Shown here piece by piece: positions 43,470-61,917 of a DNA stretch of 64,000 nucleotides. The number at the start of each line of letters is the position of its first letter. The first letter of the stretch is position 1. The notes under the pieces were generated by a model. It had not been told where the DNA came from. It did no database searches and saw only the letters and a program-made list of their open reading frames with translations. The stretch is from Gammaproteobacteria bacterium. Its GTDB lineage: Bacteria; Pseudomonadota; Gammaproteobacteria; Eutrophobiales; Eutrophobiaceae. The stretch covers positions 102-64,101 of the forward strand of contig JAJFKK010000038.1 in NCBI GenBank assembly GCA_021773245.1. The letters run 5' to 3'. The position numbers and the translations under genes were made by a program.

Positions 43470-43743
43470 CGTAGGAAAAATATATTTAAATTGTGATGAA
43501 AACAGCCCACCCTGATTTTCTTAACTAAGATGCACAATGGACTTCTGGTTTTTTATTAGTTTGTAATATCTCCAATGTACTCATAAACATCATCATCAAT
43601 TTCTATAGTATTCATAATTTTTTACCTCACTAATAGAATAATTAGAGCACTCTAATTACTTAAAACTATCAATATAGATAATATTTATACGTATATTGTG
43701 TATAAACATTGACAAATATAAATATATATCAATACTTATACAC

Positions 43744-44352
43744 ATGTCTGAATCAATTAAAATTGCTGAAAAAATAATAGAACTCGCTAAAGAACAAGGA
43801 GTTATCCAAGTTCGTGATCTACGAGAAAGAGATATACACCCTGAATATCTTCGGCGGCTTTGCGAAAAAGGTAGCCTTGTGAAACTAGCCAGAGGGCAAT
43901 ATGCGCTTCCTGATCTAAATATTAGCGAAAATCATAGTCTGGTCCTAACTGCAAAATCAGCACCTAATGCAATCATATGTCTGGTATCTGCACTGCGCTT
44001 TCATAATATAGGAACTCAAGCGCCTTATGAGATTTGGATTGCCATAAAAAATAGAACAGCCAAACCTCAGGTCAGATATCCTAAGATTCGAGTTTTTTAT
44101 TACTCAGGAATGGCGTATTCAGAAGGCGTCGAAGAACACATAATCGAAAGAGTGAATGTAAAAATATACAGTCCGGCAAAAACAATTGCAGATTGTTTTA
44201 AATATCGAAATAAAATCGGAATTGATGTGGCTATTGAAGCACTACGTGATGGATGGCATGAAAATAAATTCAATATGGATGAACTATGGCATTACGCAAA
44301 AATATGTCGTGTGGCTAATATTATGAAACCCTATCTGGAATCGCTAACATGA
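43744..44352 (+). CDS. abiEi: AbiEi-family type IV antitoxin/transcriptional regulator
   Basis: Start at MSESIK; wHTH (VIQVRDL......PEYLRRL...G.L.KLARG.Y.L) typical of AbiEi; 4-nt overlap with abiEii. Confidence 0.8.
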   Translation: MSESIKIAEKIIELAKEQGVIQVRDLRERDIHPEYLRRLCEKGSLVKLARGQYALPDLNISENHSLVLTAKSAPNAIICLVSALRFHNIGTQAPYEIWIAIKNRTAKPQVRYPKIRVFYYSGMAYSEGVEEHIIERVNVKIYSPAKTIADCFKYRNKIGIDVAIEALRDGWHENKFNMDELWHYAKICRVANIMKPYLESLT

Positions 44353-45225
44353 CTAAGGAAGCAAAAAAGGATATTGCAGCTTCAGTACGGCAACGATTAT
44401 TAAATATAGCCAAAGAACAAGAAGAAGATTTTAATTTAATTCTGACGCGATATGGATTGGAGCGAATGCTCTATCGATTAAGTCAATCAGAATGGCGGGA
44501 TAAATTTTTACTTAAAGGAGCGATGTTATTTGCGCTCTGGCATGATGAACCACATCGACCTACACGCGATGCTGACTTTTTAGGTTTTGTAAATCCCGAC
44601 ATTGATAACATAACAGCCATCTTTCAATCCTTATGTAGTATTACTGTAGATGATGATGGATTGAAATTCGATCCAGAAACGGTGACAGCAGAAGAGATTA
44701 GAGAAAATCATGCTTATGAAGGCATTCGCGTACATTTAAGTGGAGAGCTATCTGGAGCCAAGATAATATTACAAATTGATATTGGCTTTGGTGATGTAGT
44801 AACGCCAGATCCGGATGAAATTGAATATCCAACATTATTAGATCAAGAAGTGCCGAAGCTTAAGGCTTATCCTGTATATACAGTCATTGCTGAAAAATTT
44901 GAAGCGATGATAAAGCTTGGAATGATAAATACGCGAATGAAAGATTATTTATAATCTATGGATATTGTTACAAAAATTTGAATTAGAAAGCCAGCTTCTT
45001 GAGGAAGCAATAAAAGCAACGTTCGATAGAAGAAAAACAGAAATACCAAAAGAAAAGCCTTTGGCCTTTAGCGAAGAATTTTATGATGACGATACAAAGA
45101 AAAAACAGTGGGCAGCATTCTTAAATAAAAATAGCATTAATAACACTGTGGAACTAAATGAGCTTGTTAAAAATTTAGGAGAATTTCTAATTCCAATAGT
45201 AAAAGCAATAAGCACTAAAAAATAA
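44349..45225 (+). pseudogene. abiEii: AbiEii/AbiGii nucleotidyltransferase toxin, disrupted by a frameshift near 44950
   Basis: ORFs 44349..44954 and 44965..45225 are N- and C-halves of one ~290-aa AbiEii; the other frame across the break reads KIIYNLWILL, restoring the family RMKD.YD.W motif. Confidence 0.75.
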
Positions 45226-45269
45226 TAGAAATGATTTGGTTTTCAAAAATAGTTAGATTAAAAGATAAT

Positions 45270-45443
45270 GGCAATGTTAAAAGCGAAGGCATGCGCGAGA
45301 TTGAAGAACACGGCTTATTCGAAATCCATGGCGATGAACAGATTATGAATGCAATGGACAGCTTATTAAGCGCATTCGTAGAACAAAAACGCATGAAAGT
45401 GTCTGCAAAAAGCTACAAACCTTGTTATCGAATTGTTAAGTAG
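45270..45443 (+). pseudogene. Duplicated 3' end of ppnN (last 57 codons)
   Basis: 174 nt with ~6 mismatches relative to 43220-43393; encodes GNVKSEGMREIEEHGLFEIHGDEQIMNAMDSLLSAFVEQKRMKVSAKSYKPCYRIVK. Confidence 0.9.
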
Positions 45444-45572: not shown

Positions 45573-46340
45573 ATGGATAAAAAGAACAGCCCACTAAAGG
45601 ATAAGCCTCTACGTCTTGCTGGCCAGTCTCTACAGGAAGAGATCGATAAGACCATAAATGAACAAGCACTCAATTTTATTCTCTTACCTGCATTTTTTAT
45701 CTCTTTAACTCTTTATGAAGTAATTAGATATATTCAAGGAGCAGCTCCCACCATAAGGTCAGTTACACTCTTGGGGATAGTAGCAATCATAGTCTCAGTT
45801 GTTTGTGTATTTAAGCTCGTAAAATTCAGAAAAAAAGTCAAAAACATGCGCTTGGGTCTAGATGGCGAAAAAGCCGTTGGACAGGAGTTAGAGAAACTAA
45901 GAACGCAGGGATGTATGGTCTTTCATGACATTGTCGGCGATAACTTTAATATTGATCATGTGGTTGTATCTGATAAAGGTATCTTTCTCGTTGAAACAAA
46001 AACATATTCAAAACCAAATCGTGTAAATCCAAAAGTACGTTATGAAAAAGGTAAGCTTTCTATCGATGGCTTGGGTGACATGTCAAAAATTATCACTCAG
46101 GTTAAGGCTTCTAGCACTTGGTTAAAAAGAACATTAGAAGAATCGACAGGTAAAACATTCTTAATTAAACCGGTTATTCTTTTTCCTGGATGGTTTGTTG
46201 AATCACCTAATGATTCTGAAATATGGGTTTTAGAGCCGAAACAGTTTCCTTATTATATAAGTAAGAAAAAAGAAATTGTTTCTCTGGAAGATAAGAAGTT
46301 GGCTGCGTATCATTTGAGTCGGTATATAAGGGCATTATGA
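45573..46340 (+). CDS. NERD (nuclease-related domain) protein with two N-terminal TM helices
   Basis: 255 aa; G..GE..V...L..L...G..VFHDI.....NIDHVVVS..GIFLVETK NERD pattern. Confidence 0.75.
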   Translation: MDKKNSPLKDKPLRLAGQSLQEEIDKTINEQALNFILLPAFFISLTLYEVIRYIQGAAPTIRSVTLLGIVAIIVSVVCVFKLVKFRKKVKNMRLGLDGEKAVGQELEKLRTQGCMVFHDIVGDNFNIDHVVVSDKGIFLVETKTYSKPNRVNPKVRYEKGKLSIDGLGDMSKIITQVKASSTWLKRTLEESTGKTFLIKPVILFPGWFVESPNDSEIWVLEPKQFPYYISKKKEIVSLEDKKLAAYHLSRYIRAL

Positions 46341-46537: not shown

Positions 46538-47245
46538 ATGAATATCAAGGAACTAAGCGAAGTTCTCAAAGAGACAAACTTTCAGGAGGATATGCTTCAT
46601 AGTCTTGTGGAAAAAGGATTTGGTAGTCTACCTGCAAGAGAAACTGCTCTAACTATATTAGAGTTAATCTTGCAGCATTATCCTGAATGGAAAGATAATC
46701 CTCCCGAGGACTATGAATTAGCAAGACTTCTTCGGACTTCTCCTCGAAAAATAAGAGGCTTACGTGATGATTTGGCATATAGAGATCCTAGGAAAGATGA
46801 TGATTGGTGCTTAAACGAGCTTACAGAGTTACTGAAGGGTGCAGAGAGAATCAAGGATGGTGCATATGTTACTTTTGAAATTGATGATGGTTTAGTTAGA
46901 GATTTTGCAAGAAAATTAGTGAGAAAAAATCTTGGTGTATTCGAGTCGGGACTCAATAACACTGTAGTTAAAATATCAGGAGAGCAATTCATTGCTCTTA
47001 CTATGACTATATTGCCAGAAAGTGAATTTAAAAAGCTAGAGAAAGTATTAAGTAAAGAAATAGCCAAAGAGAAAGTTAAGGATAAAGATGTTTCGCCTAT
47101 TCGATTATTCGTTAATAGTTTTATAAAGTCGGCTGGAACTCAGGCAGGAAAGAAGAGTGTCGATTTAGCATTTACAGTCTTAACGGGCGGGTTGTCTGAC
47201 GTAAAAGATGCAATTGATTATTTAAAGGAATTAATAAAAAAATAA
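46538..47245 (+). CDS. Hypothetical protein (no recognised domain)
   Basis: 235-aa ORF with AAGGAG Shine-Dalgarno; bracketed by inverted copies of the heptamer-repeat site. Confidence 0.5.
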   Translation: MNIKELSEVLKETNFQEDMLHSLVEKGFGSLPARETALTILELILQHYPEWKDNPPEDYELARLLRTSPRKIRGLRDDLAYRDPRKDDDWCLNELTELLKGAERIKDGAYVTFEIDDGLVRDFARKLVRKNLGVFESGLNNTVVKISGEQFIALTMTILPESEFKKLEKVLSKEIAKEKVKDKDVSPIRLFVNSFIKSAGTQAGKKSVDLAFTVLTGGLSDVKDAIDYLKELIKK

Positions 47246-47427: not shown

Positions 47428-50190
47428 ATGCCTACTAATAGAGAAAAAGTTCTAAATTATTTAAACAAGATTTCACCCGGCAGAGCAACCAATAACGATA
47501 TTCTTATAGCTACTGAGATAGAACCTCATCAACAAGTTTTTCAGATCACCGACAATTTGTTCCAATCGGGACAAATTCAAGGAGTAAAAAATGGTAAGGA
47601 GTGGTCGTTTTGGATTGATGAAAATTCAATAAGCGGCGACTCAGTCAATCCTGAAACAGTGAGTGCTAATATGAATCCATTAATTCGCGAGTTATTTCTT
47701 AAATATAAAGCTAATCCTAATGAAGTTTGGGTTTCTGAATATGAAGAAAGAATTAATCAAGTTAGAACATTTCGGAATAAACCAGCGTCGTTTTTAACTG
47801 AAAAAGTTTTGCACGAACTGTGGATGCAAAAAGCGAATGGTATCGCTAATGTAGGACTTGGTTTTATGTATCAAAGTGAGTTTGATGCGTTACAGGAACA
47901 GTTGCCTGAAATAACGATTAAAATTATAAATGAGCCGACCTCTGTAAAACTTGATGAGATAGAAGTTTGGGCTAAACAGCAAAAAGATTTTGGGAATCTA
48001 AAGCATATTACCTGGTCAGTAATCTATCGTGTTTTCGCTGCAGCTAACCCAGATGAGCTATGTACAATAGTTAATAAAGCAAATCTAGACCAATTAATTA
48101 AAACTCTTAATGAAAATTATGGTTTTAATATTTCCACTCAAGGAAATTGGTTTGACAGAAACTCAGCCTTGCTGAAATCCTTAAAGCAAGGAGAATTAGC
48201 TAATCAAGAAGTACATTTGATAAATACCTTTCCATGGATGCTTTATGAGTGGTTAGTGGTACAAGCTCCTGAAAGAAATGCCAGCTTATCAATGGAACAT
48301 GTGATTAGTGCAATAAATGAAATTGATGAACGCGGTGTTAATTCTGGTGAAAAGTCATCTACCTACGATCTCATTCATAATGTAAGGTGTTATCCGCCTA
48401 AACTAGTCTATTCCCTAGCGCATAAATATAAAGATGGAACAGAACTCGATCGATCTGCATTTGAGGGAGGAGAAAATACGCAATGCTTTAGTGACTTACG
48501 TGGTCTTGGCTTTATCATTGAGCGTAAGGATTTTGTTTCTGAATTACTTAAGAAATTTATTCAACAAGCTGATGAAGGCGCTAGTTTAACTACAAGAGAT
48601 TATCCTAAAACGTATTGTGGGTTAGATGTTAATGTAAGTTTTGGCCAGGGCAACTTTTCAAAGGTGCCCTGGATATCATTTTTAGGATATGGTCAAAAAA
48701 CACAGAATGGTATATACCCTGTTTATCTATATTATAAAACTATCAAGGTCCTAGTACTTGCATACGGCGTAAGTACAACAAATGAACCAGAAGTAGTATG
48801 GAAATTTCATGATCATAAAGAAACAATCCGGGATCATTTAGCAAGTGAATATGATTTTCAATTAGAAAAATATGGTTATTCTTATGTTTATTCTTCATAT
48901 CATTTGCCTACTAACCTCACTGATCCTCAAGTCACTCTGGATTTAGACACTGTGATTGCTGAATACCATAAACTGATGGGCGGTACACCAACAGTTTCTC
49001 CCGCTCCTGTTCCGCCAGAACCTGAGCCACCTGTAGAACCAATCTTAGATCCTGAAGCTATATCCAAATCATTTTCTGCTGCTCTGAGTAATTCGAATGT
49101 TCGTTTTGGTGAATCCCATGATGCTAGAGTTAGTGCTTTCGTTTCAAGCTTGATGACAAAACCTCTAGTTATTCTCACCGGCTTGTCTGGTTCAGGCAAA
49201 ACGCAAATCGCCATCCGTTTTGGGGAGTGGCTAGGTAAGGATCGAATGTTAGTAGCGCCAGTTCGTCCTGATTGGACAGGTGCAGAGGCGCTATTTGGAT
49301 ACGAAGATGCACTAAAGCCAATAGTTAATGGCAGAGCTTCTTGGGCTGTGCCAGATACATTAGCATTTATACTCAAAGCTTCGAATAACCCACATTGGCC
49401 GTATTTACTTGTTTTAGATGAAATGAACTTGGCTCACGTCGAACGATATTTTGCCGATGTGTTATCTGGAATGGAATCTGATCAACCTTGCTTGCCTAAT
49501 TTAATTCAAGAGAGTGATGGTTGTTGGCGTATTGCTGATCATGGTCCTGATAAAATTACATTTCCTAAGAATATATTTGTTGTCGGTACGGTAAACGTTG
49601 ATGAAACGACTTATATGTTTTCACCAAAAGTACTCGATCGAGCCAATACGTTTGAGTTTCGGGTGACCACCGATGACTTGGCTGATGATTATATTAAACC
49701 TATACAATGCAAACCAGGTGAAATCGGATTGGTCAGAGGGTTTTTGGAAGTTGGGCGTGATGATGCATGGCATAGTCAGAATGTCTTTACAGAAGCAACA
49801 GATCTTTCTCAACAACTGCGCCATGTACATAGCATGTTAGCTGCACATGGATTTGAGTTTGGCCATCGGGTATTTTATGAGTCCCAACGCTTCGCTGCAA
49901 TTTATGGTGCCACTGGAGAATTCAATTTATCAAATGTATTAGATTTGATTGTGATGCAAAAACTATTGCCACGATTACACGGTTCTCGTCGCCGACTTGA
50001 AGAACTGCTGCGTGCCTTTGCAAAATTTTGTTTTAATAACACCATCGAAACAAAAGAGGAAAGCATAGCCTCAATATTTGAGCCGGAGGATAAAAATACT
50101 GCCGATGCAAAATTGCCCGTTTCATTTGATAAGTTAAAACGTATGTTACGTAGTTTACGAGCCAATCAATTTACGAGTTTTACGGAATAA
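47428..50190 (+). CDS. McrB-like AAA+ GTPase with long N-terminal extension (wHTH, YPPK-type module, DUF3578/MrcB_N-like module)
   Basis: 920 aa; Walker A GLSGSGKT, Walker B/McrB signature LLVLDEMNLAHVERYFADVLS, GTVNVDETT...S.KVLDRA; residues ~390-450 GQGNFSKVPWISFL...GIYPVYLYY resemble DUF3578. Confidence 0.8.
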   Translation: MPTNREKVLNYLNKISPGRATNNDILIATEIEPHQQVFQITDNLFQSGQIQGVKNGKEWSFWIDENSISGDSVNPETVSANMNPLIRELFLKYKANPNEVWVSEYEERINQVRTFRNKPASFLTEKVLHELWMQKANGIANVGLGFMYQSEFDALQEQLPEITIKIINEPTSVKLDEIEVWAKQQKDFGNLKHITWSVIYRVFAAANPDELCTIVNKANLDQLIKTLNENYGFNISTQGNWFDRNSALLKSLKQGELANQEVHLINTFPWMLYEWLVVQAPERNASLSMEHVISAINEIDERGVNSGEKSSTYDLIHNVRCYPPKLVYSLAHKYKDGTELDRSAFEGGENTQCFSDLRGLGFIIERKDFVSELLKKFIQQADEGASLTTRDYPKTYCGLDVNVSFGQGNFSKVPWISFLGYGQKTQNGIYPVYLYYKTIKVLVLAYGVSTTNEPEVVWKFHDHKETIRDHLASEYDFQLEKYGYSYVYSSYHLPTNLTDPQVTLDLDTVIAEYHKLMGGTPTVSPAPVPPEPEPPVEPILDPEAISKSFSAALSNSNVRFGESHDARVSAFVSSLMTKPLVILTGLSGSGKTQIAIRFGEWLGKDRMLVAPVRPDWTGAEALFGYEDALKPIVNGRASWAVPDTLAFILKASNNPHWPYLLVLDEMNLAHVERYFADVLSGMESDQPCLPNLIQESDGCWRIADHGPDKITFPKNIFVVGTVNVDETTYMFSPKVLDRANTFEFRVTTDDLADDYIKPIQCKPGEIGLVRGFLEVGRDDAWHSQNVFTEATDLSQQLRHVHSMLAAHGFEFGHRVFYESQRFAAIYGATGEFNLSNVLDLIVMQKLLPRLHGSRRRLEELLRAFAKFCFNNTIETKEESIASIFEPEDKNTADAKLPVSFDKLKRMLRSLRANQFTSFTE

Positions 50191-50193
50191 ACA

Positions 50194-52485
50194 ATGCCTG
50201 CCTGCGAAGCAACGCAGTTAGCTGTTTTAGATCAAGCCAATATTGCTCGCGCTTGTATTAGTTTGTCATTATTACCAAATAAAAAGTCGGATAAGAACCT
50301 CGTTCCGCCCTTAATCGTCTTAGATAAACATTCTGAATCAAACGCAGTTCCCCCAGTTCAATTACTTGAAGGTTGTGAATACCGCTATGAGTTTATTGAA
50401 TTAAAAGATATCAAGGGCGTAATCACAACCGATCATGCTGATGTCTTTCAGCCTGATACAAACGATGGTCGAAGTGGGCGAGTTCGGCCGGAACTGTATA
50501 CGGGGACGCTTCCAATTAGAGTCTTTCTCGATGGGAAAGATTTTGGTTCCTTCTCCCTTGAGGTGCGTTCTAGAAAACTAGATTATTTAAAAGAATACCG
50601 ATGGATGGTCAGGGATCTGGCTGAGCAAATGTCAGAAATAGTAATGAATCGTTTTGCACCTGCAATTCAACGTTTCAGTATAGATGACACAAAAGATGCG
50701 CAAACGCTTTATCAACGGTTTGCTTTTCTTAAATCTTTAATTGGCAGTGAAGAATTTCAAGCTGCTTTAAGTGAGATTGTTCATCATCCTCATGTTGCCT
50801 GGATTGATTTTCATGAGCCTGTACATCCGAGCAAGGGACTCAAAGCGGGTTCCTATGTCTCCCGTCAATTGGCCAAGAGTGGTCCAAGGCAAGAATGGAA
50901 ACATGGAATTATCTCAACCATTCCTCAAAATATTTATCGACATATAACAGAAGTAACTGTTGATACCACGCCGAATCGATTCGTTAAGTTTGCTATTGAA
51001 CGTTGGCGCGATGTGGTGGCAAGAATTGGTGAGTTACTTGCTGCGCAATCACAGAATCCAGTAATTGATAGGGGTGTACGGGAAGTAATTGAAATCCTTG
51101 ATTATCTCGATGCTATTTTAGCTGAAGGTTTGTTTAGAGAATTAGGAACGCTCGATAACTTTCCTGCAGATAACCAAGTGCTGCACAAACGGGAAGGTTA
51201 TCGAGATGTGTTTCGAGCCTATATCCAATTTGATGTGGCGGCAAAGTTATCATGGGATGGCGGCGAAGATGTTTATGGCGCGGGTAAACAAGACGTTGCG
51301 ACTTTATATGAATATTGGGTCTTCATGAAACTAGCGCAATTGATTTCTGAACTTTGTGATACGCCTTTTAAATTTTCTGATTTGATTAAGGTTGAAGAGG
51401 ATGCTTTAAATGTAATCCTTAAAAAAGGGAGGCGATGTGTATTGAAAGGGATTGTAGAACGCCGCGGGCGAATGATGGATGTGGAGCTCTGGTTCAATCG
51501 TACCTTTGGCAATAGAGCTCAAGGTGAAGGTTCTTGGTCACGACAAATGCGACCGGATTATTCACTAAAGATTTCCCCATCGAAAGATGAAGTTGCTCAT
51601 TTTGAGCCGGTTTACGTGCATTTTGATGCCAAATATCGAATTGACCGAATAGAAGATGTATTTAGGCCAGGCGAAGAAGATAGCTCTGAGTATGAAGTAA
51701 CTAACAGTAATTCGCCTGCTGCTACTGCAAAACGTGATGATCTATTAAAAATGCATGCCTATCGAGATGCTATACATCGTTCAGCCGGCGCCTATGTTTT
51801 ATACCCTGGTACTGAAGTAAAGGTGTATCGAGAATATCATGAACTCCTACCTGGCTTGGGGGCATTTGCCTTAAGACCTACCGAAGATGGAGAGGCAGCA
51901 GGCAAACTACCCTTGGAACGATTCATCGAAGATGTGCTTGAGCATGTTGCTTCTCAGATCACTCAGCATGAGCGAGGGCGATATTGGGTTAAAGAAGCTT
52001 ATGCCGAACAAGATTATTTCACTAGCGAAATACCTGCGGCATCTTTTCTAAAGCACCCTCCAGCAGATACGCAAGTGTTATTAGGTTACGTTAAGAATAA
52101 GAAGCATTGGGACTGGATAGAGAAAAACAAACTTTATAACGTTAGAGGCTACGGTAAAAGAGGGAAGATTGGATTAGGCTCAAAAGAACTGGGTTCGGAC
52201 ATAATTCTCTTGTCATGCCCTAGCGAAAAGCTAGTAGCAATTGCACGAATCATTGGTTCACCTGAATTGCATACCAAAGAAGAGATGGAAGAAAATAATT
52301 ATCCTAAACCAAAAGGAATTTACTATTGTTTCAATTTGGAAATGATTATTGATGAATATTGGTGTGGATTTGTAAGCAGTGAATTGATTGAAAAAGTACG
52401 GTCTACATTAACTCCCAATAAAGAGCCTATTGTTATGTCATGGTTAAAATTGATTCGAAGTATAGAAGTAAAAAATGACGTATAG
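50194..52485 (+). CDS. McrC-like PD-(D/E)xK nuclease with DUF2357-like N-terminal region and extra C-terminal module
   Basis: 763 aa; starts 3 nt after the McrB-like stop; LYEYWVF, RPDYSL, VHFDAKYR (D-x-K), LLKMHAYRDAI, AYVLYPG. Confidence 0.7.
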   Translation: MPACEATQLAVLDQANIARACISLSLLPNKKSDKNLVPPLIVLDKHSESNAVPPVQLLEGCEYRYEFIELKDIKGVITTDHADVFQPDTNDGRSGRVRPELYTGTLPIRVFLDGKDFGSFSLEVRSRKLDYLKEYRWMVRDLAEQMSEIVMNRFAPAIQRFSIDDTKDAQTLYQRFAFLKSLIGSEEFQAALSEIVHHPHVAWIDFHEPVHPSKGLKAGSYVSRQLAKSGPRQEWKHGIISTIPQNIYRHITEVTVDTTPNRFVKFAIERWRDVVARIGELLAAQSQNPVIDRGVREVIEILDYLDAILAEGLFRELGTLDNFPADNQVLHKREGYRDVFRAYIQFDVAAKLSWDGGEDVYGAGKQDVATLYEYWVFMKLAQLISELCDTPFKFSDLIKVEEDALNVILKKGRRCVLKGIVERRGRMMDVELWFNRTFGNRAQGEGSWSRQMRPDYSLKISPSKDEVAHFEPVYVHFDAKYRIDRIEDVFRPGEEDSSEYEVTNSNSPAATAKRDDLLKMHAYRDAIHRSAGAYVLYPGTEVKVYREYHELLPGLGAFALRPTEDGEAAGKLPLERFIEDVLEHVASQITQHERGRYWVKEAYAEQDYFTSEIPAASFLKHPPADTQVLLGYVKNKKHWDWIEKNKLYNVRGYGKRGKIGLGSKELGSDIILLSCPSEKLVAIARIIGSPELHTKEEMEENNYPKPKGIYYCFNLEMIIDEYWCGFVSSELIEKVRSTLTPNKEPIVMSWLKLIRSIEVKNDV

Positions 52486-52869
52486 ATGTCTATGTCAAAA
52501 ACAGATTGCCCTTTTTGTAATATATCTAATTCTGAAATTTTAATTCGGAACGAGTTATGTTATGCGCGATTGGATCTGTATCCAGTTTCTGAAGGCCATG
52601 TTTTGATTATTCCGTTTCGTCATTTTTCAAATTATTTTGATGTTACACAAGATGAAAAAAATGCCATTTGGTCTCTTGTAGATGAAATGAAACAAGTCAT
52701 CAGACAGGAACACAGTCCAGATGGTTATAATATCGGGATGAATGTAGGTCGAGCAGCAGGACAAACTGTCCCCCACTTACATGTTCATATCATTCCAAGA
52801 TACGAAGGCGATGTTGAGAATCCTAAAGGTGGCGTTCGAGGAGTGATACCGGTCAAACAAAAATATTAG
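52486..52869 (+). CDS. HIT-family nucleotide hydrolase/transferase
   Basis: 127 aa; histidine triad HLHVHIIP; CPFC N-terminus; ATG directly abuts the McrC-like stop (TAGATG). Confidence 0.85.
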   Translation: MSMSKTDCPFCNISNSEILIRNELCYARLDLYPVSEGHVLIIPFRHFSNYFDVTQDEKNAIWSLVDEMKQVIRQEHSPDGYNIGMNVGRAAGQTVPHLHVHIIPRYEGDVENPKGGVRGVIPVKQKY

Positions 52870-52885
52870 TTTTCTAATTAATTTA

Positions 52886-53038
52886 ATGAAACTTTTTACA
52901 CAAAATAAAGAGCAAATAAAGACCTTTGACGACTGGGCCAATATTTTTCTAGGTACTAAAAAGGCCAAGCATTGGAAAGAGGGACGCAGTGCTTACTCAA
53001 TTGCTGTCTTTATTATGAATCATAATGGCCAAGCGTAG
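52886..53038 (+). pseudogene. 50-codon ORF, probable truncated gene remnant
   Basis: MKLFTQNKEQIKTFDDWANIFLGTKKAKHWKEGRSAYSIAVFIMNHNGQA-stop; the HWK.GRSA..A motif looks like the N-terminus of a longer family; assignment uncertain. Confidence 0.3.
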
Positions 53039-53092
53039 TTTATGCTGGTGAAGAAATAATTATCACTAATAATTTATAAAACGAGATAAATA

Positions 53093-56000
53093 ATGCATAG
53101 GGAAAGTGGCATATCACGAACATTTGACCTCTTCGCAGAAGAAGAGAAGATTGATAGTCATAAGATCCCGGGTTGGCCTTCCTACGCACGTTTCCCACTT
53201 AACATAGACGGCTATCATGTTGAAGATGTTGTTTTAAATGATCTAAAATCCAGTAAATCACCACTCATCATTACAGGTTTTGCTAGTTTAGATAACCTTA
53301 TTGATTTTTGTTTTGATGCCCATATAAATAATCCAAAAATTCATACACGATTACTAATTGGTCAGGAACCTTTTCCTTCTCGTAGAGAAACCTTTTCAGT
53401 TAACCAAAACCATTTGACTGAAGAAGTAGAAGCCTATTGGTTGGAACGTGGCATTTCATTGATTTATTCAGCCAAGTTAATTCATATGGTTGAGCTATTA
53501 AAGAATGGAAAAATTGAAGCGCGATATATGCCTGGTAGTCGGCGTCTTCATGCAAAGATATATTGTGGCGATGAAGCAGCAACGGTTGGTTCATCCAATT
53601 TTACCCATCCGGGACTAAAAGGACAGATTGAAGCTAATGCTCGTTTTGAAAAAGATGGGCGTTCTAGTCGGTTTGAAGAACTCACTACCATAGCTGAAAA
53701 TTATTGGACGTTGGGAAGAAGTTACCAGGATCAACTAATCGAATTATTAGAAAAATTATTACGCGTTGTAACATGGGAGGAAGCTTTAGCGCGAGCTTGT
53801 GCTGAGCTATTAGAAGGTGAGTGGGCGGAAAAATATATTCGAGGTGAATACTTATCGGGTTCAGGTAGTTTATGGCCTTCCCAAAAACAGGGTATAGCGC
53901 AAGCACTTACAATATTATCGACTCAAGGTAGTGTTTTAATCGCTGATGCTACCGGTGCTGGGAAAACCAAGATGGGTACTTACTTAATAGGTGCTGTGCA
54001 GGATCATATCTTACGTACAGGCAGAATGCGTCAAGGTAAAGCATTAATGATTTGTCCTCCAACAGCAGAATCAAATTGGAAACGGGAATCAAACTTATCA
54101 GGTGTTGCTTTAGATCCTTATTCACATGGAATTTTCAGTAATGAGAGAACAAAAGGACATGATGATACTGTTGATGCTCTACGTAGAGCGCAAATCCTTT
54201 CAGTTGATGAAGGGCATAACTTCCTTAATTTTAAATCTCAAAGAACTCAAAAACTATTAAGAAATATGGCAGACCATGTCATGTTGTTTACTGCTACGCC
54301 AATTAATAAAAGCGTGAATGACCTACTGAGAATGGCCGATATGCTTGGTGCCGATAATTTATCTGAATCAGTTATTTCGGCATTTAAGAAGATGTTAGGT
54401 GTTCGAAATCTGAGTAGACAATTATCAGAGAAAGAACTTGATGAGTTAAGGACGGAAATAAAAAAATTTACAGTTCGACGTACAAAGAAGCAGTTGAATA
54501 AGCTTGTTGATAGAGAGCCGGATAAATATACAGATATTAATGGTAAGCAATGCCGTTTTCCGAAGCATTTGCCAAAAGTCTACAGTCTATATGAATCTGA
54601 TGATGATAAAGAAATTGCAAATAAAATAAAAAAACTAGCAAGTGAATTATATGGCGTCACTCATTTTGTTAAAACAATTAAAATGCCTGATATTTTTATT
54701 AAACAAGGTTTGACAGAAGAAAAATATTTACAAGGGCGTTTGGCTTCGGCAAAAAGTTTAGCCCGATATATGATCATGTCTTGTTTAAGGTCATCACGAG
54801 CAGCACTGATTGAGCATGCTGTTGGTACAGATGAAGCAATTGAGTTTAGTCAAATAACGGGTTTTCATAAAAGCAACAAAAGCAAAGGGATGACGGAGCA
54901 AATAAAATCAATAAAAGATAAGTTGCCCGAGAATCAATTAAGCATCGACCTTCCTCTATGGTTAACTAATAAAAAAGATCATGGAGATGCTTGTGCTAAT
55001 GACTTCAGAATTTATAGAAAAATTGCTGATCTTGCAGCGCACATGAGTGATAGTAGAGAAATATCTAAGGCTAAAAGATTAATGAGCTTATTAAAAAAGC
55101 ATGATCTTGTTTTAGCATTTGATAGGAAGCCAATTACTTTAGCTGTCATTAATCAAAAAATAAGTCTTAATAAAGATAATAGGGTGCTTGTTGCATGGGG
55201 AGAAAAAGGGAGTGACAAGGATAAAGTTATAAAAACATTTGCATTTGGTTCAGAAGAAAAAGGTGTTATCGGTCTTTGTTCAGATAGTCTTGCCGAAGCA
55301 GTAAATCTTCAACAGGCATCGTGTTTATTACACTTGGATATGCCAAGTGTAGTTCGGATAGCCGAGCAGAGAGCTGGAAGAATAGACCGTATGGATAGTC
55401 CCCATAAGAATATAGAAATATGGTGGCCGGATGATGCGGAAGAATTTTCATTGACATCCGATGAACGATTTATTGAACGATATGACACAGTAGAAAAATT
55501 ATTAGGTTCAAATATGCCTTTGCCAGAAATTATGAAACGGCACAGTAGAAAAGTAGTAACGACAAAAGACATGATTGAAGAAGTTGAGTTAAAAGAAAAT
55601 ATTTGGGATGGAATAGACGACGCATTTTCATCCGTTCGTTCATTAGTTGAAGGTGAAACTGCTATAGTTTCTACAGAAGTATACGAAAGGTATGTATCCG
55701 TTAAAGAACGTGTTTTATCAAGAGTGAGTCTTGTTAGATCTCATTCTCCGTGGGCATTGTTTTGTATTACATCAGGTAGTTTCGGTTCGCCAACATGGGT
55801 ATTACTTCCTAGTTTAGGTGGGCAGGCAGAAACAGAACTTAGTCGTATTGTTGATAAAATACGTAAGCGTTTAACTGATGACGTGGAAGATGTGAAGCTT
55901 GATGAGAATAGTGCAAAGTTACTGGATCATTTTTTAAATCGACTGTCTGTAAGTGAACGGAGTTTATTGTCCAGAAAGAAACAAAGAGCATTGGAAGAAA

Positions 56001-56335
56001 TGGAACTTATAATTGGTAAGCTAAAAACAAAGAGTGAGAGTAAAAAACATATTGATCACTTGCTAGATGTTGAGAAGATGTTAACTAATCCACCAAAAGA
56101 TAAACAGCCAGATTGGGATGAAGTTGCTTCTAGATGGCTGGATGTGATTAGGCCAGTTTGGTTTGATAAATTAAATAATCCTAGAAACAAACCACTTCTT
56201 TTAAAAGATATTCGAAATGAACTGATGAAAGAACCTAAATGGCTAGTGAGTGAAATTGTAGAACATTTTAGACGTTTTCCGATATTGCCTGGGCCAGAAG
56301 AAAGGATTAAGGCTTGTATTATTGGTGTGAATTAA
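53093..56335 (+). CDS. PLD (HKD) nuclease domain fused to SF2 (SNF2/DEAD-like) helicase
   Basis: 1080 aa; single HKD motif HAKIYCGDEAATVGSSNF (H153); helicase motifs ADATGAGKT, DEGHNF, TATPINKS, QRAGRIDR; ~280-aa uncharacterised C-terminus. Confidence 0.8.
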   Translation: MHRESGISRTFDLFAEEEKIDSHKIPGWPSYARFPLNIDGYHVEDVVLNDLKSSKSPLIITGFASLDNLIDFCFDAHINNPKIHTRLLIGQEPFPSRRETFSVNQNHLTEEVEAYWLERGISLIYSAKLIHMVELLKNGKIEARYMPGSRRLHAKIYCGDEAATVGSSNFTHPGLKGQIEANARFEKDGRSSRFEELTTIAENYWTLGRSYQDQLIELLEKLLRVVTWEEALARACAELLEGEWAEKYIRGEYLSGSGSLWPSQKQGIAQALTILSTQGSVLIADATGAGKTKMGTYLIGAVQDHILRTGRMRQGKALMICPPTAESNWKRESNLSGVALDPYSHGIFSNERTKGHDDTVDALRRAQILSVDEGHNFLNFKSQRTQKLLRNMADHVMLFTATPINKSVNDLLRMADMLGADNLSESVISAFKKMLGVRNLSRQLSEKELDELRTEIKKFTVRRTKKQLNKLVDREPDKYTDINGKQCRFPKHLPKVYSLYESDDDKEIANKIKKLASELYGVTHFVKTIKMPDIFIKQGLTEEKYLQGRLASAKSLARYMIMSCLRSSRAALIEHAVGTDEAIEFSQITGFHKSNKSKGMTEQIKSIKDKLPENQLSIDLPLWLTNKKDHGDACANDFRIYRKIADLAAHMSDSREISKAKRLMSLLKKHDLVLAFDRKPITLAVINQKISLNKDNRVLVAWGEKGSDKDKVIKTFAFGSEEKGVIGLCSDSLAEAVNLQQASCLLHLDMPSVVRIAEQRAGRIDRMDSPHKNIEIWWPDDAEEFSLTSDERFIERYDTVEKLLGSNMPLPEIMKRHSRKVVTTKDMIEEVELKENIWDGIDDAFSSVRSLVEGETAIVSTEVYERYVSVKERVLSRVSLVRSHSPWALFCITSGSFGSPTWVLLPSLGGQAETELSRIVDKIRKRLTDDVEDVKLDENSAKLLDHFLNRLSVSERSLLSRKKQRALEEMELIIGKLKTKSESKKHIDHLLDVEKMLTNPPKDKQPDWDEVASRWLDVIRPVWFDKLNNPRNKPLLLKDIRNELMKEPKWLVSEIVEHFRRFPILPGPEERIKACIIGVN

Positions 56336-56432: not shown

Positions 56433-57560
56433 ATGGATAAAACCCTTAGAATAGAAGCAATAAAGCAAGCCATGGATAAGGCTGGCCTTAACCAAGCTGC
56501 GCTCTCTGCAAAGCTGAGTGTTTCAAAAGAAATCGTTTCCAAATGGCTTAGTGGTGTTAAGTTCCCGCGTCCAGATAAATTACTTAGATTATCTAGTGCT
56601 TTGGAATTAAATTACGATGAACTCGTTGAGATTATTTCTCAGGTTAATGAACCGATAATAGCTTTTCGTAAAAAAGGTAGTACAAAAACAACAGAAAAAC
56701 ATATTAATAGAGCTAAAAATATAGGTCGTTTGTTATCTTGTTTAGTTTCTTATTTGCCCTTTGATGAATTTGTTCAGCCATCAAAATTAAAAAATCCCAA
56801 ACTTGAGTATGAATATGTTCAATCCTTTACTTTTAAAGTTCGTAAAGAAATAGGATTGCGAATAGATCAGGTAATTGATTTTACTGATTTAATTCATACA
56901 TTTCATGAATTACAGGCAGTAATTGTCCCTGTTATGTGGGGAAAGAAGAATGTACATGAAAATGCACTTCATATTTATTTGCCTGATTCAATGACGACTT
57001 GGGTTTATTTGAACTTAGATACAGAGTTACATGATTTTAAGTTTTGGATGGCTCATGAATTAGGTCATGTATTTAGTCCTGATCTAAGAGGAAATGAAGC
57101 AGAAGATTTTGCTGATGCATTTGCCGGAGCATTATTATTCCCTCAAGAATTGGCCAAGCAGGCATATAAAAGTATATCTTCAAGTAAAAGCGATAAAATA
57201 AGAATTTCTAAAATTAGAGACTATGCACTTGAATATTCAATATCTTTAATCTCTGTATATAAAGAAATTAATAATTATGCTATTTATAATAGTTTGCCTA
57301 AGATAGATTTAGGAAATAGTTTGTTTGGGGCAAATACAAATTTTAATAAAATGTTTGCAACTGTAAGTGGTTCATTATTTGAAAATGAATCTCCAAATGC
57401 TGAAGATTATATTCAAAGAACTTCAGATGTTTTTGAAACTCCTTTTTTTGATACTTTGAAAAAGTATCTAGTTGAACACGGAAAGTCAGCAAGTTATGTA
57501 CAGTCTATTCTTGATACTCCGCTAATTGACGCAAAGGAACTGTATGCGGAGTTGACTTGA
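56433..57560 (+). CDS. XRE HTH fused to ImmA/IrrE (M78) metallopeptidase
   Basis: 375 aa; N-terminal HTH (LNQAALSAKLSVSKEIVSKWLSG), HExxH motif MAHELGHVF. Confidence 0.8.
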   Translation: MDKTLRIEAIKQAMDKAGLNQAALSAKLSVSKEIVSKWLSGVKFPRPDKLLRLSSALELNYDELVEIISQVNEPIIAFRKKGSTKTTEKHINRAKNIGRLLSCLVSYLPFDEFVQPSKLKNPKLEYEYVQSFTFKVRKEIGLRIDQVIDFTDLIHTFHELQAVIVPVMWGKKNVHENALHIYLPDSMTTWVYLNLDTELHDFKFWMAHELGHVFSPDLRGNEAEDFADAFAGALLFPQELAKQAYKSISSSKSDKIRISKIRDYALEYSISLISVYKEINNYAIYNSLPKIDLGNSLFGANTNFNKMFATVSGSLFENESPNAEDYIQRTSDVFETPFFDTLKKYLVEHGKSASYVQSILDTPLIDAKELYAELT

Positions 57561-58120
57561 TGTCGCAGTCAAAAATTCTAATTGATAGTAATTCCTATTT
57601 TAGATTAGCCAAAAGTATACACCCGCTTTTGAATGAGGTGTTTGGTGAATTAGAATATTGTTTATATGTACTAAAGGAACTGGAAAAAGAATATGACCGA
57701 AACCCTCGTTTAAAAACTAAGTTTCATTGGGTAAATGAAGATGAATATTTTCAGAATAGAAAAAAGAAAGTAAATATTTCAAATAAAGAAAAAAAAGAAA
57801 TAGAAAGGACTATAGGATTTTTAGAAGGATATAAAAATGACAATTGCTTAGGAACTTCTCCAATAGATATAAAATATCTAGCAACGGCTTTTATTTTAGA
57901 TATACCTGTTGTAACAGATGATATAGATATGCTTAACCTAGGAAAAGCATTTGATATTGTAACTATGACTAGTATGGACTTGCTGAAGTTAATGTTAGAA
58001 AGCGATCATATAAACATTGAAAAAGTAAGAGAAACAGTATCGTATTGGAAATATATAAAAGATATACCAGCAAACTATAAAAAGAATTACAAAAAATTAT
58101 TTAAAGAAAATGCTCCTTAA
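57560..58120 (+). CDS. PIN-like (DUF4411-like) putative nuclease/toxin
   Basis: ATG overlaps the ImmA stop (TGATG); ILIDSNSYF N-terminus and VVTDDIDM acidic motif consistent with a PIN-like fold. Confidence 0.55.
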   Translation: MSQSKILIDSNSYFRLAKSIHPLLNEVFGELEYCLYVLKELEKEYDRNPRLKTKFHWVNEDEYFQNRKKKVNISNKEKKEIERTIGFLEGYKNDNCLGTSPIDIKYLATAFILDIPVVTDDIDMLNLGKAFDIVTMTSMDLLKLMLESDHINIEKVRETVSYWKYIKDIPANYKKNYKKLFKENAP

Positions 58121-58305: not shown

Positions 58306-59298
58306 TCAAGCAAAATTCTTATCAAATGGCATACCACTTTTCAAAACCCCATAAATAATGTGAACGAGTTTTCGCATAGCAGCACCAACAATCGCCATTT
58401 TAGATTTACCTGCTTTTGTTAATCGCAACTTTAATTCTATGATTAATGGGTTATGTTTTAACGCGACTAATGCCGGCATAAAGAAGGCCTTGCGTAAATT
58501 AGAACGCCCCATCTTTGACATCCTTGCACGTGAACGTAATGACGTTCCGGATTCTCGTGTTTTCGGTGCAACGCCAATAAATGCCGCCAAGGCTTTTGCA
58601 TTTTTGAATTGAGTGATGTTACCAAACTCGGAAAGAATGACATTGATAGTGGCTTCACCAATGCCTGGAATGCTTTCCAGTAATACTTTTCTTTTCTTCA
58701 TATCGGGGTGATCATCGATGTGTTGTTTAATCATTTTCTTTACCTTCTTTATCTCTTTATCAAGATACGCAAGGTGATGATGTAGTTGTTCTGCAATGAG
58801 ATCACTGGCACCTTCAAGCCGATTACTTTCTTGTCGATGCATATTTCCCAATGCCTCTAAGCGTCGTACCAGGTCACGACATTGGCGTATTTCCACTGGT
58901 AGTGGTTGCCAGAGCGAGGGCTCCAGTGCGAGACAAAAACGCGCAATCAAACTCGCATCAACTTTGTCTGTTTTAGTACGCAGTTGTTCACTTTGTGCAA
59001 AGCCTTTGACACGCGCTGGATTGACAATACTAATATTTATTTCGTTGTCATATAAATATTCAGCTAAGGCTTCACCATAAACACCAGTGGCTTCCATACA
59101 CGCATGCAGTTCCTGAGCATCGTGTTTACTGAGCCAAGCCAGTAATGTTTGATAGCCTTTTGTATTATTAAAGAATTTCTTGTGTTTTAGTTTGTTACCT
59201 ATCAATAGCGCAACATCAAACTTCTGTTTGTATATATCGATACCCAGTGTTGTTTTGGTTGTTATCATTGTTCTGCTTACCTCGTGATGCAGGTTCAT
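58306..59298 (-). CDS. IS110-family DEDD transposase/recombinase
   Basis: 330 aa; LGIDI.K, MEATG.YGE, VNPARVKGFA, KTDKVDA, SIPGIGE, G..P....SG. Confidence 0.9.
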   Translation of the reverse strand: MNLHHEVSRTMITTKTTLGIDIYKQKFDVALLIGNKLKHKKFFNNTKGYQTLLAWLSKHDAQELHACMEATGVYGEALAEYLYDNEINISIVNPARVKGFAQSEQLRTKTDKVDASLIARFCLALEPSLWQPLPVEIRQCRDLVRRLEALGNMHRQESNRLEGASDLIAEQLHHHLAYLDKEIKKVKKMIKQHIDDHPDMKKRKVLLESIPGIGEATINVILSEFGNITQFKNAKALAAFIGVAPKTRESGTSLRSRARMSKMGRSNLRKAFFMPALVALKHNPLIIELKLRLTKAGKSKMAIVGAAMRKLVHIIYGVLKSGMPFDKNFA

Positions 59299-59986: not shown

Positions 59987-60808
59987 CTAGCGCCAGGACG
60001 CCGGGTCCAGATTATAGAATCTTTTCAGTTGTACATATAAGTCCGGCAATTTTTTCTGCATCTGTCTGGGTTTTTCGAAGAAGGATTCTGTTGCTACGGC
60101 AAAGAATTCCGCTGGCGAGACTGCGCCGTATTCATCGATAACAGAATTTTTCCCTTTTTCTACTCTAATCAATAGTGATTCATATTCTTTGCTTAGCACT
60201 TTGGCCCATTCTGCGTAATGGGAAATGTCGCGAAGTACCGGCAGGCCATCCATGCTGTCATTTGCCTCATCCAGCTTATGGGCGAATTCATGTAGCACGA
60301 CATTGTGTCCTTCATTACTATTTTTTGTTCCGCGCATAACATCTGCCCACGATAAGACGATGGGGCCACGGTGCCAGGACTCGCCTGCTCTTACGCTTTC
60401 TTTTTCGGTTACAAGCAAGCCATGATAATGGATTTCCTTGCTGACATAGGTATTCGGATAAACCAGGATAGAGGTAAAGCCCGGAAAGCATTCTTTATCC
60501 CGTTGTAACAGGAGCAGGCAGGCATTCCCGGCGATGGTGATGCGGATCTCGTCGGTGATCTCCAAACCCGCACAGCCAAAGAATTCTTTTTCATCAAGGA
60601 AGATATTGATGCGGCCATACAGTTCTGGGCGCAGGTCTTCCGGCAGCAAGGCGTAGAGTGTGACGTTACGTTCCAGTAACGGCATCCATTCGGGAGGTAA
60701 TGGTTTTAGGAACAGCCTGTTGCGTCGGGCGCGTTGTAATCGTGAGTGACTCACCCAGATCAGGATGATGATAACGATTATGCTGAATAAGATAAGGATA
60801 GGGGACAT
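59987..60808 (-). CDS. mtfA: MtfA-like M90 zinc peptidase
   Basis: 273 aa; N-terminal TM, HEFAHKLD zinc motif, GPIVLSW, SPAEFFAV.TE.FF as in E. coli MtfA. Confidence 0.8.
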   Translation of the reverse strand: MSPILILFSIIVIIILIWVSHSRLQRARRNRLFLKPLPPEWMPLLERNVTLYALLPEDLRPELYGRINIFLDEKEFFGCAGLEITDEIRITIAGNACLLLLQRDKECFPGFTSILVYPNTYVSKEIHYHGLLVTEKESVRAGESWHRGPIVLSWADVMRGTKNSNEGHNVVLHEFAHKLDEANDSMDGLPVLRDISHYAEWAKVLSKEYESLLIRVEKGKNSVIDEYGAVSPAEFFAVATESFFEKPRQMQKKLPDLYVQLKRFYNLDPASWR

Positions 60809-60957
60809 TGATAGCTAAATTAAAACACATTCTGTGCTTTGTGAAGAAGTTATCTTTGCTAATCAATCGAACCGGTCGCTTCTTTACGCCATGACATCGC
60901 GGCATTAGTACTTCCCTGTACGTCTATCATTTGGTTTAATTCATCTATACTTTACAC

Positions 60958-61917
60958 ATGAAAGCCAAGTCCTTTAATCTACAAACAACACGCCGTGAGT
61001 TTTTAAAATCAGTCAGTGGTGTGGCCTTGTCGCCGTTTGCTTCTTCGTTTTTGCCCGCTTCAGTGTTTGCTGAAGACGTTGTTTCAGATTCAATTCTGAC
61101 TAAAGCGATTCCGGTTTCGTCTGAACAGATTCCGGTGATCGGTATGGGGTCATGGCAAACTTTTGATGTAGATGATGATGCAGAAAACCGTGCACGTTGT
61201 GTCAAGATACTGGAGTCGTTTTTTAAACGCGGTGGCGGCATGATCGATTCTTCGCCGATGTACGGTTCGTCACAAGAAGTGATTGGTCATAGTCTTGCAC
61301 AACTGAAACCACATCCCGGTTTATTTTCTGCGACCAAGGTCTGGATTATCGGCAAGTCGTTTGGTATTGGCCAGATGGAAGATTCGCAATACTTGTGGGC
61401 TATCCCGCGTTTTGATCTGATGCAGATCCATAATATGTTGAACTGGCGCACGCATCTCGAAACCTTGAAGGAATGGAAAGCAGTGGGACGAATCCGTTAT
61501 ATCGGTATTACCACCTCACATGGACGGCGACATGAAAAGCTTTATAAAGCCTTACAGGAAGAAGCGTTTGATTTTGTGCAGTTCACTTATAATGTTGTTG
61601 ATCGCGAGGTAGAACAACGTTTATTACCCCTGGCCAGGGAACGCGGTATTGCCGTGATCATTAATCGTCCGTTTCAACACGGTGCGTTGTTTGATCGGGT
61701 TAGGAATAAACCCTTGCCGGATTTTGCTGCCGAGATCGATTGCGCTAACTGGGCACAGTTCTTTTTAAAGTTTATTGTTTCGCATCCTGCTGTGACCTGT
61801 GCGATTCCTGCAACCTCACAAGTCCCACATATGCAGGAGAATATGGGTGCCGCCTATGGACGCTTACCCGACCGAGCAATGCGCGAACGCATGCTTCAGT
61901 ATTTTTTTTCCATCTAA
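60958..61917 (+). CDS. Aldo/keto reductase with Tat-type signal peptide
   Basis: 319 aa; RREFLK twin-arginine motif; IDSSPMYG, IRYIGITTS AKR motifs. Confidence 0.8.
   Translation: MKAKSFNLQTTRREFLKSVSGVALSPFASSFLPASVFAEDVVSDSILTKAIPVSSEQIPVIGMGSWQTFDVDDDAENRARCVKILESFFKRGGGMIDSSPMYGSSQEVIGHSLAQLKPHPGLFSATKVWIIGKSFGIGQMEDSQYLWAIPRFDLMQIHNMLNWRTHLETLKEWKAVGRIRYIGITTSHGRRHEKLYKALQEEAFDFVQFTYNVVDREVEQRLLPLARERGIAVIINRPFQHGALFDRVRNKPLPDFAAEIDCANWAQFFLKFIVSHPAVTCAIPATSQVPHMQENMGAAYGRLPDRAMRERMLQYFFSI

Follow-up and report, generated by a model that had tools for sequence, protein, structure and literature searches.

In the usual view of the textbook modification-dependent (Type IV) restriction systems, McrBC and SauUSI, a reader, a motor and a nuclease suffice; according to published descriptions, SauUSI itself comprises PLD, helicase and DUF3427 domains only and has no HIT domain. 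In another defence system, Thoeris, a HIT gene (ThsC) has been recorded in 2.4% of the systems (PADLOC paper). The present analysis concerns a HIT-family gene that lies directly behind an McrB-McrC gene pair in a DNA stretch of 64,000 nucleotides from a member of the Gammaproteobacteria (assembly GCA_021773245.1, contig JAJFKK010000038.1, positions 102 to 64,101 of the forward strand; this whole stretch is referred to as the window). Based on the recurrence of this arrangement in related loci and on fusions of the same HIT subfamily to Type IV nucleases, the HIT protein is likely to be a functional accessory partner of modification-dependent (McrBC-type) restriction. In the open-access literature, HIT was mentioned neither in the McrBC census and its supplements nor in the screen of modification-dependent restriction endonucleases or the Type IV review, and searches for HIT together with McrC, anti-phage defence, HNH/restriction or SauUSI yielded no relevant paper beyond the PADLOC note on ThsC; this agrees with the first-pass annotation of the sequence, according to which HIT enzymes are not known partners of McrBC. 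McrBC restriction with a HIT accessory, within a broader link between a HIT subfamily and modification-dependent nucleases, is apparently undescribed.

The two genes upstream of HIT (see Table 1 for coordinates) display the features of a Type IV McrBC pair: an McrB-type AAA+ GTPase with a reader domain and an adjacent McrC with DUF2357 and PD-(D/E)xK nuclease domains. The McrB-like protein matched Pfam MrcB_N (E 9.3e-9), the NCBIfam McrB model (E 1.5e-42, under the equivalog cut-off) and PADLOC PDC-M26A (E 3.1e-43). Its BLASTP alignment with McrB of Escherichia coli K-12 (28% identity, residues 374-816, E 5e-49) spans almost the whole E. coli protein including the N-terminal domain that reads 5-methylcytosine (m5C), and residues 374-500 of the window protein resemble this m5C-binding domain of EcoKMcrB. 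The AAA+ GTPase signature NVDE aligns with NTAD of E. coli and agrees with the NxD pattern (NxD, usually followed by E or D, replacing NxxD), a motif match and not a placement in a tree; the NxD variant marks a large branch of McrB GTPases with no characterised member as of 2024 (Bell et al., PMC11090510). The McrC gene begins 3 nt past the McrB stop codon, and its product combines DUF2357, the McrB-activating domain (E 2.1e-47), with PDDEXK_7 (E 1.5e-35), i.e. the McrC architecture, followed by a C-terminal extension of about 220 aa; the nuclease motif HFDAKYR was invariant among 20 homologues, and BLASTP detected no similarity between the window McrC and EcoKMcrC. From these features we infer an (h)m5C-dependent DNA restriction system and not an RNA-targeting CoCoNuT (systems characterised by McrB with a long coiled coil, tandem or HEPN nucleases and predicted RNA-binding domains), as both the m5C-reader-like domain of McrB and the intact PD-(D/E)xK motif of McrC would argue against membership of the latter.

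The sequence confirms what the first-pass annotation had described at the McrC-HIT junction and in the HIT translation. The junction reads ...GTA TAG ATG TCT ATG TCA..., with the TAG stop codon of the 763-aa McrC-like open reading frame (ORF) at 52483-52485 and an ATG directly abutting it at 52486 (0-nt gap). A second in-frame ATG is present at 52492, from which the product would have 125 aa; since close HIT homologues begin with MSK or MTK and align with this second codon, it is probably the true translation start, and the gap to the McrC stop codon is then possibly 6 nt, not 0. With either start codon there is no promoter space between McrC and HIT, and a promoter/terminator consensus scan around the junctions found none beside the McrC-HIT junction or in the gap between HIT and the downstream helicase gene. 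The translation includes PHLHVHIIPRYEGD and ends with the C-terminal tail GGVRGVIPVKQKY; it was assigned to the Pfam HIT family (PF01230; E 2.7e-27, 95.7 bits versus a gathering cut-off of 21.5). The histidine triad HLHVHIIP is intact (HLHVHII at residues 97-103; H97/H99/H101), and a CPFC motif and a conserved tail (P113-G115-G116-R118...Y127) are present as well. Among 120 homologues, H99 was invariant and H97 and H101 were conserved in at least 90%, and the tail residues were, like the triad, invariant or nearly so. The AlphaFold2 model was of high confidence (pLDDT 90.8, pTM 0.85; tail about 68), and Foldseek retrieved 127 matches in the PDB at E <=0.001, of which the 50 listed were all HIT proteins, identifying the HIT fold. 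Conservation of triad and tail together with the confident model thus predict a catalytically competent enzyme.

The best structural matches (E about 2e-10, TM 0.70-0.78) were the diadenosine tetraphosphate (Ap4A) phosphorylase Rv2613c (3ano, 3wo5), its Mycobacterium avium homologue (6af2) and Fhit (7p8p); aprataxin, GalT and DcpS structures were absent among the top 50 matches. The best NCBIfam match was likewise ATP adenylyltransferase/Ap4A phosphorylase (NF052622; E 5.7e-25), its 87.8 bits falling far below the equivalog cut-off of 290, so that the window HIT is not a member, and the same applies to Hint/purine nucleoside phosphoramidase (NF007965; 42.7 bits versus 206). The protein does not have the aprataxin-type architecture, in which a DNA-binding C2H2 zinc finger succeeds the HIT domain: it ends 26 residues past the triad, with no C-terminal zinc finger, FHA or other domain. 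Searches of PDB sequences with the tail GGVRGVIPxKxxY gave no alignment to solved structures, the tail-only search aligning up to ...PRYEGD.

The tight spacing of McrC and HIT is in itself weak evidence for a functional relation, because the HIT gene is closely coupled to unrelated upstream genes at other loci, too. What exceeds chance is that the McrC-HIT junction recurs elsewhere, its gaps ranging from -14 to +13 nt. Seven McrC lineages, the window included, share at least 60% identity with the window McrC (loci are given by L numbers), and six of these have HIT immediately behind McrC: L084 (McrC 65% identical; 4-nt gap), L087 (60%; 4-nt overlap), L180 and L264-269 (74-75%, 12 contigs; gaps of +3 and -1 nt), L270-273 (63%; 13-nt gap), the window itself, and L179, where McrC is split by an IS630-type transposase (78%/67% identity) and an intact HIT follows with a 14-nt overlap. 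In L086 (74%), a DUF429 gene occupies the position downstream of McrC. Single nucleotide high-scoring segment pairs cross the McrC-HIT junction in L084 and L087. The flanks of the trio vary (peptidase M90 in the window and L084, HsdM and NYN/OST-HTH in L270, toxin-antitoxin genes in L179; at least four different flanking contexts), and the reader domain of McrB varies among MrcB_N, EVE and ScoMcrA_N; because both flanks and reader domains differ among the loci, the three genes McrB-McrC-HIT evidently move together. Pairwise identities of McrC and HIT were correlated (Spearman 0.84 over 36 non-independent pairs). L264 and L180 share 93% nucleotide identity over the aligned locus and 97% McrC identity, versus only about 85-88% nucleotide and 85% protein identity for HIT, which suggests either recombinational exchange of the HIT segment or a faster evolution of HIT.

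Among more distant metagenomic McrC loci, HIT was found at four of 80: besides L087, these were L144 (McrB-McrC-HIT-HNH, 3-nt gap), L157 (a divergent HIT) and L134 (a HIT-PLD-helicase fusion gene divergent from McrBC). By our own rough estimate, at most about 0.2 occurrences in about 700 flanking genes would be expected by chance if HIT were a randomly placed single-copy gene.

A further connection to restriction is provided by the architecture of the subfamily itself. An exhaustive profile search returned 558 HIT cluster representatives at E <=1e-30, the best 150 of which were checked for length; 23 of these were at least 400 aa long. The domain scan of 20 long representatives assigned HIT plus PLD and/or ResIII helicase to 16, with Peptidase_S24 as an extra domain in some and DUF3427, the target-recognition domain of SauUSI, in two; one representative is HIT plus HNH. 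The HIT domain is N-terminal in these fusions to SauUSI-like PLD-helicase Type IV enzymes (e.g. the 1414-aa L134 protein: HIT, PLD, ResIII/Helicase_C and Peptidase_S24), and the PLD-helicase partners matched the PADLOC model mREase_IV for Type IV methyl-directed restriction (E 3.5e-94, 2.6e-93 and 2.3e-69). The triad is retained in 21 of the 23 long proteins. The motif DPRGGVRxVIPxKxNY is kept internally in the fusions as well, so the "tail" of the window HIT represents a structural element rather than a free C-terminus. Among 80 representative genomes, HIT adjoins a separate gene for an HNH_4 protein (about 350-430 aa) in 14 and for a SauUSI-like protein in four, two of the genomes having both; all four plasmid copies inspected were paired with an HNH gene in restriction-modification or defence surroundings. 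PDB sequence searches with the HNH partner gave no match. Taken together, the comparisons demonstrate that a Fhit-like HIT with intact triad is linked by co-inheritance, and in relatives by fusion, to nucleases that by sequence are modification-dependent and of three unrelated folds. The earlier proposal of HIT as a likely functional and co-expressed partner of the McrC-like nuclease thereby gains support from six of seven McrC lineages as well as from the fusions to Type IV nucleases.

Two further contexts of the subfamily were observed. In Bacteroidales (L050, L062, L073, L078, L083), an HNH_4 gene (product about 350 aa) overlaps by 13 nt with a gene for a 293-aa fusion of a class-I S-adenosylmethionine methyltransferase domain with a HIT domain of the subfamily. 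In sulfur-oxidising gammaproteobacteria (L005, L012, L013, L018, L019, L021, L034, L044, L060, L075, L077, L081), HIT is located 1-4 kb from the aprAB genes of adenosine 5'-phosphosulfate (APS) reductase, a neighbourhood that, given the link of HIT enzymes to APS chemistry, would fit a role in APS or adenylyl transfer there.

Several observations weigh against HIT as a partner of McrBC. The close spacing is a general habit of the HIT gene, hence not specific; the gene after McrC is otherwise heterogeneous in the wider McrC family, with no dominant third gene, and L086 is a close McrBC relative devoid of HIT, from which it follows that HIT is dispensable for the core McrBC function. The loci are few, in part share ancestry and come from metagenome contigs. 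No McrB, McrC or PLD-SNF2 homologue was found within 10 kb of HIT in any of 80 representative genomes (HIT identity 52-65%), and for two close HIT relatives (77% and 76%) the preceding gene is DUF498 or baeRF-like, not McrC. Most of the distant members of the subfamily reside in contexts unrelated to nucleases (enolase, PFK, KdtA, HflX and, in 11 sulfur oxidisers, AprAB). The first-pass annotation had named as fatal to its proposal an adjacency confined to this genome with homologues mostly in housekeeping contexts: such a picture does not apply to the close clade, where the adjacency recurs, but it does describe most of these distant members.

The same observations could be accommodated by a nucleotide-housekeeping HIT (Hint/Fhit/Ap4A-type) around which defence cassettes accumulated and whose adjacency to McrC is retained through shared descent, with no functional link; we consider such a bystander unlikely. 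It is favoured by the loci L002 and L003, whose HIT (P0014; 77-78% identity, the closest homologue on a long contig) directly follows a DUF498 gene between the peptidase M90 and aldo-keto reductase (AKR) genes, core neighbours that are mutually adjacent at 59987-61917 in the window, too, and are similarly diverged from their counterparts in L002/L003 (M90 83%, AKR 76%, HIT 77%). Furthermore, a neighbour-joining tree, which being built on a 125-aa protein is poorly resolved and serves as a rough guide only, places the window HIT with HITs of gammaproteobacteria that lie outside defence contexts; many subfamily members belong to metabolic operons, and the HIT-less McrBC of L086 is equally in line with a bystander. 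However, the nucleotide homology between the window and L002 is restricted to 52491-52882, i.e. confined to the HIT gene, and the G+C content at third codon positions (GC3) of HIT (0.27) is that of the island (McrB 0.27, McrC 0.32, PLD-SNF2 0.25) and not that of the core flanks (M90 0.54, AKR 0.45). HIT is even more foreign in L003 (0.17 versus 0.47-0.51 of the neighbours), and the same holds for L176 (0.29 versus 0.52-0.55). The gene is thus compositionally island-like in the window and foreign even in housekeeping-looking contexts, which removes the main support for the bystander; moreover, the McrB-McrC-HIT trio persists in differing flanking contexts, and fusions to restriction nucleases recur within the subfamily. 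The window HIT as an orthologue of the housekeeping-like L002/L003 gene (77% identity, between the M90 and AKR genes that also flank the island here) was accordingly rejected on account of the gene-confined homology, the L003 composition and the fact that most close relatives follow McrC.

The foreign composition of HIT wherever examined, together with the confinement of between-locus homology to this gene, could instead point to a self-mobile or hitch-hiking cassette (e.g. the cargo of an HNH homing endonuclease) that lands at the 3' ends of operons. Frequent pairing with HNH genes in either order, including plasmid copies beside insertion sequence (IS) elements, and the diverged HIT between the otherwise near-identical L264 and L180 loci (McrC 97%, 93% at nucleotide level, HIT 85%) are also compatible with this idea. 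It is nevertheless very unlikely in our judgement: the in-frame PLD-helicase fusions that keep the triad argue for a selected enzymatic role, no HNH gene is found beside HIT in the window, L084, L087 and L264, and no repeats or attachment sites turned up, though no systematic search for these was made. A pairing of HIT with the PLD-SNF2 helicase gene downstream of it, as a two-gene version of the HIT-PLD-helicase fusions, is highly improbable. This candidate was prompted by the L134 fusion; such fusions are common in the subfamily, in L017 a PLD-helicase gene directly precedes HIT, and a 52%-identical homologue of the window helicase lies next to McrBC-HIT in L270-L273. It was rejected since a DUF6946 remnant intervenes between HIT and the helicase, the stretch homologous to the L167 helicase cassette (80% nucleotide identity) has its exact limits at 53047 and 56335, and HIT is absent beside the helicase homologues of 88%, 65% and 62% identity. 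In addition, the helicases of the fusions are of the ResIII/SauUSI type with no tblastn similarity to the window SNF2 protein, the L270 helicase is encoded on the opposite strand, and L084 and L179 possess McrC-HIT with no helicase.

The history of the locus is recorded in the DUF6946 remnant. Over 46 aa it shares 57% identity with the N-terminal part of the complete L084 DUF6946 protein (E 9e-18), and DUF6946 follows HIT in both L084 (4670-5389) and L179 (3375-4053); whereas HIT is undamaged at all three loci, only L084 has a complete DUF6946 gene, that of L179 being split and that of the window having shrunk to 50 codons. Given the remnant and the start of the L167 homology, the PLD-SNF2 helicase arrived later, and the ancestral order was McrB-McrC-HIT-DUF6946-(M90); by this sequence comparison, the block from PLD-SNF2 through the putative IS110 transposase is a later insertion, with the helicase cassette placed in the DUF6946 gene. 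The motif GLEAKVDE of DUF6946 is of the D...EAK type, which suggests a PD-(D/E)xK nuclease; a PDB sequence search with DUF6946 gave no match. The PLD-SNF2 homologue of L270-L273 is convergent with the McrB-McrC-HIT genes there, and this second neighbourhood of the two may be a coincidence or reflect a preference.

According to the favoured reading, i.e. HIT as accessory of McrBC restriction, HIT would be the third gene, co-translated and distal to the promoter, of a Type IV cassette that moves horizontally: McrBC would recognise and cut DNA containing methyl- or hydroxymethyl-cytosine, and HIT would assist restriction by using its triad to cleave or transfer a nucleoside-5'-phosphoryl group (AMP/NMP-X). 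The frequent tethering of the HIT domain in cis to DNA-translocating nucleases favours a substrate on DNA or close to it, for which nucleotidylated 5' ends of DNA and nucleotidylated proteins (e.g. ligase-AMP) are candidates; action on either would influence the resealing of breaks. A close alternative would be a small nucleotide, e.g. an activated donor or precursor for phage DNA modification. The first-pass annotation had offered, as speculative options, the processing of a nucleotide signal, de-adenylation of DNA ends and action on a phage DNA modification. Two points speak against DNA ends: Ap4A phosphorylase and Fhit are small-dinucleotide enzymes, so that the modelled similarity to them would favour a small-nucleotide substrate, and the phage homologues described below, being placed among nucleotide-biosynthesis genes, point to small molecules as well. 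The assignment of any single substrate class is at best tentative.

At least 518 viral contigs of IMG/VR encode the HIT subfamily (pattern PxGG[VI]RGVI), and 80 of these loci (L184-L263) were inspected. A phosphoribosyltransferase gene lies directly upstream of HIT in 37 loci, GTP cyclohydrolase I about 0.3 kb downstream in 26 and a QueE-like radical-SAM gene about 1 kb downstream in 32, a set that looks like a 7-deazapurine cluster; no paper on a link between HIT and deazaguanine was found in the open-access literature. The McrC profile scan of the viral contigs yielded only three distant loci. In phage phiSASD1 (L175), the HIT protein gp4 is encoded behind an AANH-like (QueC-like?) gene. On a wider and quite unlikely reading, the HIT subfamily marked by GGVRGVIPxKxxY would be an enzymatic weapon over DNA modification, joined to modification-dependent nucleases of the host (McrBC, SauUSI-like, HNH) and placed in phage clusters alike, so that both sides would employ one chemistry. 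On the host side it might destroy nucleotide-activated donors or precursors (e.g. nucleoside diphosphate sugars) with which phages mask 5-hydroxymethylcytosine or other bases, by which phage DNA would stay recognisable, or transfer AMP onto nuclease-made 5'-phosphates in the manner of Ap4A phosphorylase, rendering the breaks unligatable; on the phage side, it would act within the 7-deazapurine clusters (phosphoribosyltransferase, HIT, GTP cyclohydrolase I, QueE-like).

The McrB-McrC-HIT genes are part of an AT-rich island (GC3 0.20-0.32) at about 43.7-58.1 kb, between a PpnN/LOG-like gene and M90, the other genes of which are included in Table 1. The XRE-HTH/M78 gene and the AT-rich ORF overlapping it look like a toxin-antitoxin defence pair of the RosmerTA type. 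The AbiEii toxin gene is probably disrupted, as its ORF breaks off at position 199 of the 299-position profile, with two short ORFs behind it. Neither the NERD-domain protein nor the 235-aa ORF upstream of McrB was found in other McrB-McrC-HIT loci.

Table 1. Features in and near the defence island of the window.
Feature	Position	Strand	Size	Basis and remarks
ORF containing SLAGAQEKTALL	37295-38596	-	433 aa	resembles a HipA-type kinase toxin; read from the translation only, no family search made
AbiEi/AbiEii pair	43696-45443			AbiEii ORF ends at profile position 199/299
Short ORF after AbiEii	44965-45225			
Short ORF after AbiEii	45231-45443			
NERD-domain protein	45573-46340			just upstream of McrB; N-terminal half looks hydrophobic by eye
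ORF	46538-47245		235 aa	just upstream of McrB; no family match
McrB-like GTPase	47428-50190	+	920 aa	Pfam MrcB_N, NCBIfam McrB, BLASTP, PADLOC
McrC-like subunit	50194-52485	+	763 aa	Pfam DUF2357 and PDDEXK_7
HIT-family enzyme	52486-52869	+	127 aa	Pfam HIT
DUF6946 gene remnant	52886-53038	+	50 codons	cut short by a later insertion
Single-gene PLD-SNF2 helicase cassette	53047-56335 (gene 53093-56335)	+	1080 aa	Pfam, PADLOC
XRE-HTH and M78 peptidase protein	56433-57560			RmrA models (PADLOC, E down to 3.8e-13)
Very AT-rich ORF	57557-58120		187 aa	no family match; 4-nt overlap with the preceding gene
Putative IS110-family transposase	58306-59298	-	330 aa	assigned by eye from its translation, no family search made; at the right end of the inserted block, beside M90

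The recurrence of a triad-intact HIT as third gene or fused domain implies a so far unrecognised step in restriction, which might process ends, prevent repair or interfere with the chemistry of phage modification. The motif PxGG[VI]RxVIP defines a sequence signature for finding related modules, the window system is flagged as a tractable model for the uncharacterised NxD branch of McrB GTPases, and the subfamily members in hundreds of viral contigs, including a large group of related contigs with HIT beside 7-deazapurine biosynthesis genes, suggest a likewise undescribed link to DNA hypermodification.

Compared with the characterised systems, the window locus shares with EcoKMcrBC the two-gene core of an AAA+ GTPase with N-terminal reader of modified cytosine and a subsequent activator-nuclease subunit. 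It differs in the GTPase motif (NVDE versus NTAD), the length of McrC (763 versus 348 aa in E. coli) and the operon, which in the window contains HIT, ancestrally together with DUF6946, whereas neither of the two follows EcoKMcrBC. With respect to HIT enzymes, Ap4A phosphorylase Rv2613c and Fhit are nearest in fold and sequence and have the motif HxHxHxxPR(Y/W)xGD in common with the window HIT, which is distinguished by its own conserved tail and by its restriction context versus nucleotide housekeeping. To our knowledge, aprataxin is the only HIT enzyme known to act on DNA ends and as such the natural analogy for a nuclease-tethered HIT, to be taken as a lead and not as a finding: it is a eukaryotic 5'-deadenylase with a HIT-zinc-finger architecture, whereas the window HIT has neither zinc finger nor FHA domain, and since the fold is nearer to Ap4A phosphorylase/Fhit, the strict analogy is slightly disfavoured. 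ThsC (PADLOC "Thoeris type II") resembles the present case in that HIT is an optional extra gene in a minority of the copies of a defence system and is, by analogy, a precedent for HIT as an optional accessory; the ThsC model matched the window HIT with 52 bits (E 1.2e-14) versus 96 bits for Pfam HIT, and no Thoeris model matched any of the ten flanking window proteins scanned between 43696 and 58120, so that the protein does not classify as ThsC, which would adjoin genes for ThsA (SIR2/Macro-SLOG) and ThsB (TIR). Thoeris employs NAD-derived nucleotide signalling; for McrBC, no signal is known. The SauUSI family is likewise modification-dependent and NTP-driven, and many metagenomic proteins of this kind carry an N-terminal HIT domain of the same subfamily; in the window, the nuclease is McrBC and HIT is a separate polypeptide.

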